Origin: Coriobacteriia bacterium
GTDB taxonomy: Bacteria > Actinomycetota > Coriobacteriia > Coriobacteriales > UBA8131
Length of the DNA: 11,050 nt
NCBI GenBank assembly: GCA_009784425.1
Contig: WRBR01000061.1
Coordinates: 1-11,050, forward strand
Direction of reading: 5' to 3'
In this document: positions 5,159 through 7,452 of the stretch, in pieces
How the letters are laid out: every line of letters starts with the position of its first letter
Numbering within the stretch: position 1 is the stretch's first letter
Made by a program: the position numbers and the translations under genes
The notes under the pieces: generated by a model
The model's input: only the letters and a program-made list of their open reading frames with translations
What the model was told of the DNA's origin: nothing
Database searches by the model: none

Positions 5159-6394
5159 ATGGCGGATTTCTCAGAGCTGGTAAAAAGGTTTGATAAGATT
5201 AGAGACTATATGCATGACTTTTATGTGTATGGTTTTAAGTCACGCTTGGACTTTACCAAGAAGTCGCCGCGCACTTATGACAACGAGCGCCGCCGCATAG
5301 AGAGCTATCTGAGCGGTCACATGCAGTGGGATTACAGAAATGGCGCCAAGATATCCTTTGTTTCTCTAGACTGCGCTCAGGTTTTGAACAATCCCCTCTA
5401 TGCTGCGTGGAAGTCAAAAAGCTTTACTGCAAACGACATAATGCTGCACTTTTTCCTTTTGGATTCACTTTGCGAGAGCCCCTTGACCATAGAGGAGCTC
5501 ACGCAAGAAGTCTGCACAAGGTGCGAGCTTGTTCTCGACTCCCAAACCATCAGAAATAAATGTGATGAGTATGTGAGGCTGGGCATGCTGGAAAAGAAAA
5601 AGCAGGGCAGGGCCTACGTGTACCGTATCTCTACTGAGCCGGCCTTGTTGCCGCAAGAGCTTATAAACGCGGTGAGTTTTTTCCAGGGCGCAGCTCCTTT
5701 TGGTGAGATTGGCAGTTTTATCCTCGATAACGAAAAAGCAGCCAATACTGTTTTCTCCTTTAAGCACTACTACCTGGCGCACACGCTTGAAGACGGCATC
5801 TTGCTGGAGCTCCTCACGGCCATACGGCAGAGTCGATCGGTGACCTTCAAAAACCAGAGCAGCAAGTCGGAGCAGATATTTGCCTTTGAGGCAATTCCCT
5901 TGAAGATATTCGTCAGCGCTACCACCGGAAGGCGCTATGCCTGTATGTACTCGCCAACGAGCAGGCGTTTTTTCAACTATCGCCTCGATGCCATCAAGGC
6001 GGTAACCCTGGGCGAGGCTGCAGACTGCGCACCTCAACTGAGAGAGCAGCTGGATAAGAACCTCGATATGGTGTGGGGCGTGAGCTTTGGCGGCAAGGCG
6101 CGCTCTGACATCATTCGCATGACGCTGTATATCAATGAGAAGAGCGAGCACTATATCATCGACCGCATAGCGCGTGAAGGGCAGGGGGGCAGTCTTACTC
6201 GCCTGAAGAAAAACACCTTTCTCTTTACCAAGGAGGTCTTTGACAGCAACGACATGTCTCCCTGGATTAAGACGTTCACCGGCCGCATCATCGCACTTGA
6301 GGGGTCCAACCAGGCAGTAGTCAACCGCTTCTATCGTGACATCTCGGCTCTGGCACAGCTCTATGGCATTCAAGCCGGGGAGGCTGATTCTTAA
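5159..6394 (+). CDS. WYL-domain transcriptional regulator with wHTH-WYL-WCX architecture (PafB/BrxR/CapW-like), carrying an extra N-terminal domain of about 110 aa
   Basis: The wHTH is about TIEELTQEVCTRCELVLDSQTIRNKCDEYVRLGMLEKK. The WYL motif is RYACMYSPTSRRFFNYRLDAIKAVTL. The C-terminal WCX-like segment is YIIDRIAREGQGGSL. The start is ambiguous: ATG 5159 has GGAGGG 14 nt upstream, while the track start TTG 5138 has no RBS. The stop TAA overlaps the next ATG (TAATG). Confidence 0.75.
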   Translation: MADFSELVKRFDKIRDYMHDFYVYGFKSRLDFTKKSPRTYDNERRRIESYLSGHMQWDYRNGAKISFVSLDCAQVLNNPLYAAWKSKSFTANDIMLHFFLLDSLCESPLTIEELTQEVCTRCELVLDSQTIRNKCDEYVRLGMLEKKKQGRAYVYRISTEPALLPQELINAVSFFQGAAPFGEIGSFILDNEKAANTVFSFKHYYLAHTLEDGILLELLTAIRQSRSVTFKNQSSKSEQIFAFEAIPLKIFVSATTGRRYACMYSPTSRRFFNYRLDAIKAVTLGEAADCAPQLREQLDKNLDMVWGVSFGGKARSDIIRMTLYINEKSEHYIIDRIAREGQGGSLTRLKKNTFLFTKEVFDSNDMSPWIKTFTGRIIALEGSNQAVVNRFYRDISALAQLYGIQAGEADS

Positions 6395-7452
6395 TGGAGC
6401 TCTTCTCAGAAGTCTACGGCTGCTATTACACGGTTGTCTCTCGGGTGCTCAATGAGGCGCAGGAGGGCATGAGCCGTAGTGCCATTGAGCAGCTTGTTGA
6501 TGAGGGCGGGTTCTACGAGAGTGCGTTTTATCTGCTGCCGTCTCTTTTCTCGGGCGAGTGGAATCTTCTCAGGCAAGAAGGTACACAGTATTTTTCAAAG
6601 CTCGCACATGAGGCAAAAAGGCCTCTGACCACTCTCGAAAAAGCATGGCTCAAGGCCCTGATTGCCGATGCGCGCATTCAGCTCTTTTTGGACGCTCTGC
6701 AAATTGAGGAGCTTGAACGGCTCGTGGGAGATGTTGAGGCTCTCTACCAAAACAGCGACTTTCATTTCTATGACCGTCATCTTGATGGAGACGACTTTGA
6801 AAGCCCCAGCTATGCTCTCCATTTTAAGACGGTGCTTAAAGCAACCCAGGAGCAAAAAGCCGTGCAAATTGAATATGAGGGTTCAGACGGTAAGGTAACT
6901 GACACTCTCTACTATCCTTATAAGCTCAGTTACTCAAGCAGAGACGATAAGTTTCGCCTTCTCTGCGCTTCTTCGAATAAACGGAAAAACCGCCTTCAGC
7001 GGGTAACCCTCAACTTGGCACGGATAAGATCGGTGAGCCTTGCCCGGACCGGTGCAGGTGATGGAGTCGGTACTGGCACCGGTGCTGAGGCCGGTGCTGA
7101 GGCCGGCATTGAGGCCGGTACCGTGGTCGGGAGTTCTGCCGCTGTCTTTGCCCGGCTGGAGCAGCTTTTTGCCCAAGCCACCTGTGAAGAGCCGGTGGTC
7201 TTTGAGATATCCCGCGAGCGCAATGCCCTGGAACGAGCCATGCTCCAATTTGCCTCATACAAACGCCAAACCGTCTACGACCAAAAGCGAGATATCTACA
7301 CCTGTAGCATCTGGTACGACTCCGCCGATGAAACCGAACTGCTTATCCGCATCCTCAGCTTTGGCCCCGTGCTACAGGTTGTAGGCCCCCAGCGATTCCT
7401 AGAACAACTCAAAACCCGCATAAGCCGCCAACTCACCCTGAATCAGCAATAA
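6394..7452 (+). CDS. WYL-domain protein (PafC-like partner regulator) with WYL and WCX domains and an internal (AEAG)n low-complexity linker
   Basis: The WYL motif is KFRLLCASSNKRKNRLQRVTLNLARIRSVSL. The C-terminal WCX is LIRILSFGPVLQVVGPQRFLEQLKTRISRQ. Translation is coupled to the upstream WYL gene by a 1-nt overlap. The Gly/Ala/Glu-rich insert is encoded by a 12-nt tandem repeat. Confidence 0.75.
   Translation: MELFSEVYGCYYTVVSRVLNEAQEGMSRSAIEQLVDEGGFYESAFYLLPSLFSGEWNLLRQEGTQYFSKLAHEAKRPLTTLEKAWLKALIADARIQLFLDALQIEELERLVGDVEALYQNSDFHFYDRHLDGDDFESPSYALHFKTVLKATQEQKAVQIEYEGSDGKVTDTLYYPYKLSYSSRDDKFRLLCASSNKRKNRLQRVTLNLARIRSVSLARTGAGDGVGTGTGAEAGAEAGIEAGTVVGSSAAVFARLEQLFAQATCEEPVVFEISRERNALERAMLQFASYKRQTVYDQKRDIYTCSIWYDSADETELLIRILSFGPVLQVVGPQRFLEQLKTRISRQLTLNQQ
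7046..7140 (+). repeat. In-frame tandem repeat with 12-nt period (GGTGCTGAGGCC x2, GGCATTGAGGCC, GGTACCGTGGTC, ...) that encodes the G/T/A/E-rich linker of the PafC-like protein. It is potentially variable in copy number.
   Basis: Direct reading: ggcaccggtgct gaggccggtgct gaggccggcatt gaggccggtacc. The encoded peptide is GTGTGAEAGAEAGIEAGTVVG. Confidence 0.7.

Follow-up and report, generated by a model that had tools for sequence, protein, structure and literature searches.

A WYL-domain protein pair in a Coriobacteriia-labeled contig belongs to a clostridial family predicted to regulate an RNA-repair operon

The transcription factors that most resemble the two proteins described here combine a winged helix-turn-helix (wHTH) with a WYL and a WCX domain. 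PafBC (mycobacterial and Arthrobacter PafB/PafC) is specified by two adjacent genes, each of this architecture, in the Pup-proteasome locus of Actinobacteria, and its regulon is one of DNA repair. Its two subunits pair as a heterodimer by way of their WCX domains, and it is activated when ssDNA lies across the WYL domains; it acts at promoters that have no -35 element and carry a canonical -10 together with a factor-specific -26 element (sigma adaptation), and a single helix-turn-helix (HTH) of the complex reads the DNA (PMC8635444). DriD, an activator from Caulobacter, is a homodimer that senses single-stranded DNA (ssDNA), contacts RNA polymerase once its WYL domain has bound nucleic acid, and controls DNA-damage genes, and BrxR and CapW are homodimers encoded beside the systems that they control, which are anti-phage systems (BREX and CBASS). 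On the side of RNA repair, RtcR of the Proteobacteria is a sensor-regulator whose gene is divergent from the RtcB operon under its control, an operon with a Y RNA-like or tRNA-like RNA among its members, and damaged tRNA is the signal to which it responds (PMC7790460). According to bioRxiv 10.1101/312249, which quotes them, Burroughs and Aravind (2016) proposed that RtcB, a Band-7 protein, and a “b7a-tRNA” make up an RNA-repair system, and WYL transcription factors have been predicted to sense RNAs with cyclic phosphate ends and to regulate RNA-repair pathways (PMC9503650), so the general idea that links WYL proteins to RNA repair is not new. Here we consider two adjacent genes, WYL-A and WYL-B, in a stretch of 11,050 nucleotides (nt) that makes up positions 1 to 11,050 of contig WRBR01000061.1 (assembly GCA_009784425.1, a metagenome-assembled genome [MAG] labeled Coriobacteriia bacterium), referred to below as the window. 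The pair probably specifies a heteromeric wHTH-WYL-WCX regulator dedicated to an RNA-repair operon of RtcB, a tRNA-like RNA, and an SPFH protein. To our knowledge, the switching-on of RtcB-type RNA repair is known only for proteobacterial RtcR, and we found no experimentally studied clostridial RtcB regulator in the literature.

The regulon is indicated by the genes that accompany the pair in its relatives. A scan of one genome per species gave at least 532 loci that encode the pair, and the counts out of 80 given below refer to the 80 best of them, in which flanking genes were counted by tblastn; gene content was inspected at nine related loci (Anaerocolumna, Clostridium acetobutylicum, several MAGs, and the loci with fused genes). 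Nearly always, the pair is divergent from the operon. In Anaerocolumna, C. acetobutylicum, and the MAGs, it is divergent from RtcB (410 amino acids [aa]), which is followed by a non-coding gap of ~500 nt and then by the gene for a Band_7/SPFH protein (364 aa). Of the 80 loci, 59 have RtcB in the flank and about 52 have the SPFH/Band-7 gene. At 6 of the 80, the place of SPFH is taken by a DUF2828/DUF7788 protein with a weak vWA match, possibly of a Ro60/TROVE-like nature (Ro-like fold), and the exchange suggests that SPFH and DUF2828/DUF7788 are interchangeable RNA-binding scaffolds. The DUF2828/DUF7788 protein stands beside the tRNA-like RNA, instead of SPFH, in L005 (4630-6204) and also in L047, L057, L058, L062, L064, and L074. 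In C. acetobutylicum (L009, 5046-8981), the pair forms the tail of an RtcB2-PrfH operon and faces the RtcB operon, and L060 likewise links the pair to RtcB2 and to PrfH, a release-factor homologue; this linkage ties the regulators to ribosome or rRNA repair too. No DNA-repair gene recurs in the neighborhoods examined, and no defense system recurs beside the pair in the nine inspected loci, PADLOC giving generic WYL matches only.

The window belongs to the class that has SPFH but no RtcB. SPFH occurs without RtcB at 9 of the 80 loci, and two of these (L012 and L032) retain N-terminal RtcB stubs of 50-57 aa; with nine other species in this state and stubs in two, loss of RtcB is recurrent. In the window, tblastn with an RtcB of the family gave nothing better than E 0.6, and no remnants were detected. 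The place of RtcB is held by ~330 nt of unrelated sequence (4675-5000), which includes an open reading frame (ORF) of 39 codons for whose product Pfam gave no match. The SPFH protein of the window is 73% identical over 365 aa to the Band-7 protein that follows RtcB in L007.

Between the RtcB position and the SPFH gene lies a structured RNA. The DNA of this gap is conserved, with nhmmer E values down to 1e-35 from the window sequence alone, and a profile made for the RNA matches the minus strand of the window (E 2e-70) and about 60 loci, always on the strand of SPFH and directly upstream of it, with or without RtcB. Folding of 14 diverse copies with RNAalifold predicted 85 pairs, of which 70 show compensatory changes. 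In the aligned copies, 90.4% of cells are paired on the predicted structure, as compared with 72% after shuffling and ~42% when the partners are slid, and the corresponding covariation scores are 0.60, 0.25, and 0.13, all of these values coming from a structure derived from the same alignment on which it was scored. Its tRNA-like module is permuted as in YrlA, with a T arm, a closed acceptor-like stem, and a D arm, and has a covarying domain on its 5′ side and a long domain on its 3′ side. Rfam at its gathering threshold gave nothing in the window; below that threshold there are YrlA and tRNA matches, the partial YrlA match reaching 30.6 bits (E 2.6e-4) in the window and 27.5 bits in L007. At ~450-560 nt, this Y RNA-like or tRNA-like RNA far exceeds a tRNA in size, and it probably represents a longer form of the “b7a-tRNA” (band-7-associated tRNA). 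Compared with the RtcB/Band-7/b7a-tRNA system, the window has the Band-7 protein and the tRNA-like RNA, and its relatives add RtcB in the described order, but the window is without RtcB and the RNA has several covarying domains over its greater length.

The predicted connection of the pair to this operon is a short sequence between the divergent genes. Alignment of the DNA upstream of WYL-A brought out a near-invariant box, TCATTTAAAAAA(GT/AG)TTGCGAA, which is present in constant orientation in 77 of 85 nonredundant loci (with at most 4 mismatches), and elsewhere in ~1.1 Mb there is one further site only. Where RtcB lies apart from the pair (L009, L061, and L076), the box stays with the RtcB promoter. 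The copy in the window is perfect, where zero would be expected by chance with up to 3 mismatches, and no second box occurs anywhere in the window. The initial annotation had instead named a palindrome at 5071-5089, along with the SPFH promoter, as a place to map binding. This palindrome is found only in other copies of the window contig and at one unrelated position in L031, and since it is not conserved we rejected it as an operator in favor of the box; by our own estimate, about ten palindromes of 5 + 5 bp are expected by chance in 11 kb.

Profiled over 72 loci in the direction of RtcB, the box takes up positions 1-22 and is followed by 15 non-conserved nt, the motif TGnTAnnAT at 38-46 (T 75%, G 79%, T 99%, A 97%, A 79%, T 97%), and CAT near 52-54. 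On this comparative reading, the predicted RtcB-side promoter is an extended -10 with no -35 consensus, its box spans about -52 to -31, and minus-strand transcription in the window would start near 5001. Near the box, a scan for consensus sigma-70 promoters gave none that was convincing, and the promoter is instead called from the comparative profile. Between the box and the start of WYL-A there are from 13 to more than 400 nt, so any autoregulation has no conserved geometry. Dyad symmetry is absent from the box, as would suit a heteromer whose DNA readers are not equivalent, and a single reading HTH of the kind reported for PafBC (PMC8635444) would fit such an asymmetric site. In L037, L044, L045, and L050, two of the 21-bp boxes lie 41 nt apart (about four helical turns) upstream of WYL-A, a hint that binding may be cooperative or of higher order in some lineages.

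The same geometry bears on the sign of regulation, and here we lean, by analogy, towards activation. The strict phasing and the absent -35 resemble activation by PafBC and DriD, and the promoters, like those of PafBC, lack a -35 and have a conserved (extended) -10, but their specific element differs in sequence from the -26 element of PafBC and lies at -52 to -31. A tentative counter-reading is that the pair is a repressor of the BrxR/CapW kind that sits over the -35 region on the RtcB side and leaves the promoter when its ligand binds. The box does overlap that region, an extended -10 could work without an activator, the box in some clades lies downstream of the likely WYL-A promoter in what amounts to a roadblock geometry, and BrxR and CapW, which are close folds, are repressors. 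However, a 15-nt interval from box to -10 that is kept strictly in 72 divergent loci, with no -35 consensus, is more typical of an activator in contact with RNA polymerase, such as PafBC or DriD, and we judge the repressor distinctly the less likely of the two.

That the two proteins act as one regulator is suggested by the way their genes are kept together. There are about 2,290 homologues of each protein (2292 for WYL-A at E ≤ 0.001). The 80 best loci are all from Bacillota, mostly labeled Clostridia or Lachnospiraceae, at 44-64% identity, and in 80 of 80 a B homologue lies directly 3′ of the A homologue. With start codons guessed from the alignments, the two genes overlap by 1-17 nt at ~41 of 86 loci and are separated by 0-30 nt at 31 of 86. 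In the window, they meet in the TAATG overlap already reported in the initial annotation (6392-6396), where the TAA of WYL-A (6392-6394) and the ATG of WYL-B (6394-6396) have one base in common. Moreover, 6 of the 150 best matches to the N-terminal 95 aa of WYL-A are independent natural A-B fusions of 728-855 aa from several lineages (P0243, P0255, P0262, P0268, P0364, and P0384), in which BLASTP aligns A and then B in frame, at 32-53% identity for A and 30-38% for B. Two fusions were confirmed on contigs as single ORFs (L094, 4097-6487; L095, 1887-4073); both are divergent from RtcB and occupy the position held elsewhere by the two-gene pair. In some Actinobacteria, PafB and PafC are naturally fused in a comparable way (PMC6789036). 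Recurrent fusion in the same order is classical evidence for a physical complex, and from these sequence patterns WYL-A and WYL-B very probably work together.

It is improbable that the shared operon encodes two separate regulators, a homodimer of A and a homodimer of B. Such an arrangement would suit the finding that each has the complete wHTH-WYL-WCX architecture of the homodimers DriD, BrxR, and CapW, and also the extreme divergence of the two proteins: BLASTP of WYL-A against WYL-B found nothing and hhalign aligned only the WYL domains, with a probability of 19%, and since the two are barely alignable we do not call them recent paralogues. It is at odds with a co-occurrence and gene order that are strict, with frequent translational coupling, and with the recurrent in-frame fusions, and the DNA offers one asymmetric box, not two palindromes, to a pair in which the HTH of WYL-B has no conserved basic residue.

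The domain assignments rest on Pfam and on fold models. Pfam detects WYL in WYL-A (aa 214-283) at 24.6 bits, above the cut-off of 21.8, and in WYL-B (aa 143-214) at 19.2 bits, slightly under it; among the relatives, WYL is matched at E ≤ 0.01 in 54 of 58 WYL-A and 42 of 60 WYL-B members. Neither window protein was matched by Pfam WCX, which is found in 28 of 60 WYL-B relatives and in 1 of 58 WYL-A relatives. Generic CRISPR-associated WYL models of PADLOC match both proteins over the WYL and C-terminal parts, and no NCBIfam model matches either one. AlphaFold2 models made from alignments of 58 (WYL-A) and 60 (WYL-B) sequences have a mean pLDDT (predicted local distance difference test) of 76 and 86, respectively. 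In the WYL-A model, a wHTH (~91-157) is followed by WYL (~226-287) and by a WCX-like ferredoxin fold with a C-terminal helix (317-401). The WYL-B model begins with a wHTH (6-68; helices 6-24, 28-37, and 47-53 and a hairpin at 59-68), continues with WYL (~143-216) and a disordered Gly/Ala linker (~217-247), and ends in WCX (268-351). In both models, the wHTH consists of three helices and a β-hairpin, and the natural fusion P0255 has weak Pfam matches to HTH_20 and Penicillinase_R at this place. The C-terminal topology of both models equals the WCX topology seen in the PafBC structure (PMC6789036). Foldseek against the PDB returned 32 matches per query at E ≤ 0.001, each one a chain of a WYL-domain protein, comprising DriD, PafC/PafB, BrxR and CapW (together 7qfz, 7t8k, 7tb5, and 9c5g), and a CRISPR-associated WYL protein (6oaw). 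The best matches for WYL-A are DriD 8tpk_A and PafC 9fnd_Y, each with E 2.7e-11, and the best for WYL-B is PafC 9fnd_Y (E 9.7e-12); 9fnd_X is also among the best, and DriD (8tpk, 8tp8, 9pfv) is best or near-best for both proteins. The alignments extend over ~350-385 columns at 10-17% identity, with E from 1e-11 to 1e-5 for DriD, PafC, PafB, BrxR, and CapW. As modeled, WYL-A and WYL-B are wHTH-WYL-WCX regulators (class A of Mueller et al. 2019), in which WCX is assigned at the level of the fold only.

Much of what the initial annotation had said of these proteins is thereby upheld. It had described a PafB/PafC-like WYL pair, which both the Pfam matches and the two models bear out; it had placed WYL and WCX in both proteins, and WYL is now seen by Pfam in the window proteins or their family and WCX by fold, with Pfam WCX in relatives only; and it had claimed a wHTH for at least the first protein, where the models give one to each. 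Pfam had also been named as a check, with failure to find these domains as the contrary outcome, and WYL was detected. The extra domain that the annotation saw at the N terminus of WYL-A exists, but it is about 90 aa long (1-90) and not about 110. Pfam matched no family to this domain. It holds 22 of the 52 residues that are invariant in the family, and the basic and polar ones among them are R15, R29, R38, Y40, D41, R45, R46, and K64. An exhaustive search with the N-terminal 95 aa gave 593 representative clusters, with the domain at or near the protein N terminus in all listed matches; the complete proteins that carry it are mostly ~380-520 aa, and many matches are shorter fragments. Further invariant residues of WYL-A lie in the third (recognition) helix of its wHTH (Q129, R132, and K134), and its WYL domain has conserved arginines at R258, R259, and R275. 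In the HTH of WYL-B, the invariant residues are aromatic or hydrophobic, W56 among them. The repeat-encoded linker described for WYL-B was also found, a 12-nt unit repeated 3.4 times that codes for extra Gly/Ala-rich sequence between WYL and WCX and is modeled as disordered (pLDDT below 50 at residues 226-241). Most WYL-B homologues (~325 aa) are without this stretch, and some from Anaerocolumna have unrelated Ser/Ala/Glu-rich insertions at the same point, so the linker is best seen as a tolerated insertion hot-spot and not as a feature of the family. ARAGORN called a 97-nt tRNA-Pro(CGG) at 7008-7104, which falls within the Gly/Ala repeat region of WYL-B; the call is almost certainly spurious.

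The likeness to PafBC does not extend to sequence or to locus. No significant match to a WYL regulator of solved structure came from sequence searches with the single proteins or with family profiles: phmmer gave PafC at E 2.1, and the profiles gave PafB at E 0.11 and PafBC at E 0.27. In the structural alignments, identity to PafBC is 14-17%. PafBC sits in the Pup-proteasome locus of Actinobacteria, whereas this pair is clostridial and sits beside RtcB, and, as had been noted, there are no proteasome, Pup, or PafA genes in the window, nor are there any in L001 or L002. The pair here differs also in the additional conserved N-terminal domain of WYL-A, in a promoter element of other sequence and position, and in a regulon of RNA repair in place of DNA repair. 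In short, the pair is a large, uncharacterized, and distinct clostridial family, sometimes fused, that is not PafBC by descent or by context. The NCBI label of the source MAG, Coriobacteriia (Actinomycetota), stands against the Bacillota of all 80 closest loci, and the mismatch points to inter-phylum horizontal transfer or to a binning error.

From these elements a working scheme can be put together, in which A-B association, box binding, and the ligand are all inferred from sequence. A complex of A and B would bind the box mainly through WYL-A, by way of its N-terminal domain and wHTH recognition helix, since it is WYL-A that carries invariant basic residues and the HTH of WYL-B has none. The WYL and WCX modules would bind a nucleic-acid damage signal, as their counterparts do in known WYL regulators, and the ligand-bound complex would then switch the promoter on in a class-II or PafBC-like manner. 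In the window, the transcript would run on the minus strand from ~5001 through the 39-codon ORF, the RNA (4674-4112), and the SPFH gene (4106-3012). The signal would most plausibly be broken RNA, such as fragments of tRNA or rRNA, with ssDNA as the alternative; broken RNA is suggested by the RNA-centered regulon and by the analogy with RtcR, of which the pair would in this role be the Gram-positive counterpart. That analogy is functional only: RtcR combines a CARF sensor with a sigma-54 AAA+ enhancer-binding ATPase, whereas here WYL and WCX would act at a housekeeping-type promoter. An extension of the scheme, which we hold with considerable doubt, is that the pair is the first RNA-responsive WYL transcription factor and a Gram-positive counterpart of RtcR made from entirely different parts. 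Its WYL and WCX domains would in that event read broken RNA ends (2′,3′-cyclic phosphate, 5′-OH) or the operon’s own tRNA-like RNA, and WYL-A would have, in its N-terminal domain, a new module for reading DNA or RNA.

A clearly less likely possibility is that regulator and regulon are as proposed but that the signal is ssDNA, so that RNA repair would be one arm of a response to DNA damage or phage. The ligands of the structurally solved WYL transcription factors are all ssDNA, and these factors are the closest folds. Expression of the Salmonella RNA-repair operon is reportedly tied, by the title of PMC9879122, to the SOS response and to prophage genes. On the other side, the regulon is purely RNA-centered (RtcB, RtcB2-PrfH, the tRNA-like RNA, and SPFH or DUF2828/DUF7788), with no recurrent DNA-repair gene, and WYL and WCX have folds of a kind usual in RNA-binding proteins (PMC6789036). 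The comparison with DNA damage and ssDNA made in the initial annotation is thus possible, but the regulon points to RNA damage.

Several observations weigh against a heteromeric activator of RNA repair, whether as a family or in the window, and they are best taken together. At the level of the proteins, the N-terminal domain of WYL-A is modeled with low confidence (pLDDT 48-66), neither protein reaches PafB or PafC by sequence at better than E 0.1, and the hhalign result leaves WYL-A and WYL-B related through little more than their WYL domains. As for the ligand, those solved for PafBC, DriD, and CapW are without exception ssDNA (PMC11804915). As for the promoter, the box is at -52 to -31 and not at the -26 position of PafBC; over the -35 of an extended -10 promoter it could equally repress, and repression is the role of BrxR and CapW. 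In the window itself, RtcB is absent and the -10 differs from TGnTAnnAT at two moderately conserved positions, and from these two facts the local system may be partly decayed.

The remaining alternative concerns the other side of the pair. To its right in the window are a Gp49/HigB-like toxin with an HTH antitoxin, a tyrosine integrase, and an excisionase-like HTH protein, and a longer contig (L001, 10667-17737) continues with a PIN protein, a NikA-like protein, a relaxase, MutH, Dcm, and Vsr; together, the genes on the integrase side are an integrative mobilizable element. The initial annotation had placed the pair in an accessory island and read it as a repurposed ligand-sensing switch for the cargo of that island, acting through the palindrome at 5071-5089 and the SPFH promoter. 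The integrase, excisionase-like HTH, PIN protein, relaxase, and MutH/Dcm/Vsr genes on the right are in keeping with this, as is the toxin-antitoxin pair directly after WYL-B, and the Coriobacteriia label of the MAG, set beside 80 best loci that are all from Bacillota, makes horizontal acquisition plausible. Adjacency to an integrase is real, and the pair may lie within the island, but control of its cargo did not hold up. The partners that are conserved (the box, the RNA, SPFH, and in most relatives RtcB) are found to the left of the pair, on the side that does not hold the integrase, and dozens of chromosomal loci share them. In the nine inspected related loci, no integrase was seen and no island genes recur, the palindrome is absent from all related loci, and the window has no second box. 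We regard this alternative as very unlikely. An empty site or another arrangement was sought by way of the neighboring ABC permease, and the gene order was identical in every contig.

The other features of the locus are collected in Table 1. The ATG start of WYL-A agrees with its homologues and with NCBI record MCL2530034.1, which like WYL-A begins MADFSEL; the upstream TTG at 5138 that appears in the ORF list would give 418 aa. Adjacency of the toxin-antitoxin genes to WYL-B is seen in the window contig only. Gp49/HigB-like toxins are mRNA endonucleases, and a toxin of this activity would place a source of RNA damage beside an RNA-repair regulator. Directly 3′ of the SPFH gene is a perfect inverted repeat with arms of 51 nt, possibly the terminator of the operon or a small palindromic (mobile) element. 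Elements resembling repetitive extragenic palindromic (REP) sequences, with a 27-nt palindromic unit GAGACAGGGGGACGGTTCTTCTGTCTC, lie at 2645-2756 and 8230-8285 and bracket the block from SPFH to the antitoxin; on both strands, their copies give rise to spurious ORFs that contain the peptide GDGSSVSETEEP.

Table 1. Features of the WYL-A/WYL-B locus, in window coordinates
Feature	Position	Strand	Details or basis
WYL-A (ORF-A), regulator	5159..6394	+	411 aa counted from ATG
WYL-B (ORF-B), partner	6394..7452	+	352 aa
Family-wide asymmetric 21-bp box TCATTTAAAAAAGTTTGCGAA, predicted operator of the WYL pair	5033..5053	strand-neutral	perfect copy
Predicted -10 hexamer TAATCT of the minus-strand promoter	5013-5008	-	72-locus promoter profile and sequence
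39-codon ORF with a good ribosome-binding site, at the RtcB place of relatives	4843..4962	-	ORF list and sequence
Large structured non-coding RNA with YrlA-type permuted tRNA-like module	4112..4674	-	profile, covariation, Rfam
SPFH/Band-7 protein, 364 aa (ATG 4106), conserved as the final gene of the predicted operon	3012..4106	-	Pfam Band_7, 115.5 bits
Inverted repeat, perfect, 51 nt per arm	2817-2867 / 2906-2956	strand-neutral	100% complementary, 38-nt loop
12-nt tandem repeat CCGGTGCTGAGG x3.4 in WYL-B	7079..7119	+	Tandem Repeats Finder
Gp49/HigB-like (RelE/ParE-type) toxin	7598-7957		directly after WYL-B
HTH_3 antitoxin, overlapping the toxin gene	7917-8213
Tyrosine integrase	8589-9860
Excisionase-like HTH_17 protein	9987-10385

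WYL regulators have so far been shown to sense ssDNA only, though their folds resemble those of RNA binders, and the family described here is a test case for what WYL domains sense. It offers a two-subunit regulator with natural fusions, a sharply defined predicted 21-bp operator in a fixed promoter geometry, and a regulon that is purely RNA-centered (RtcB, RtcB2-PrfH, a large tRNA-like RNA, and SPFH), and it is present in clostridia that are cultivable and genetically tractable, for example C. acetobutylicum, Anaerocolumna, and Blautia producta. The variants without RtcB, of which the window is one, keep the RNA and SPFH module and would regulate it alone, and they bear on the role of that module.

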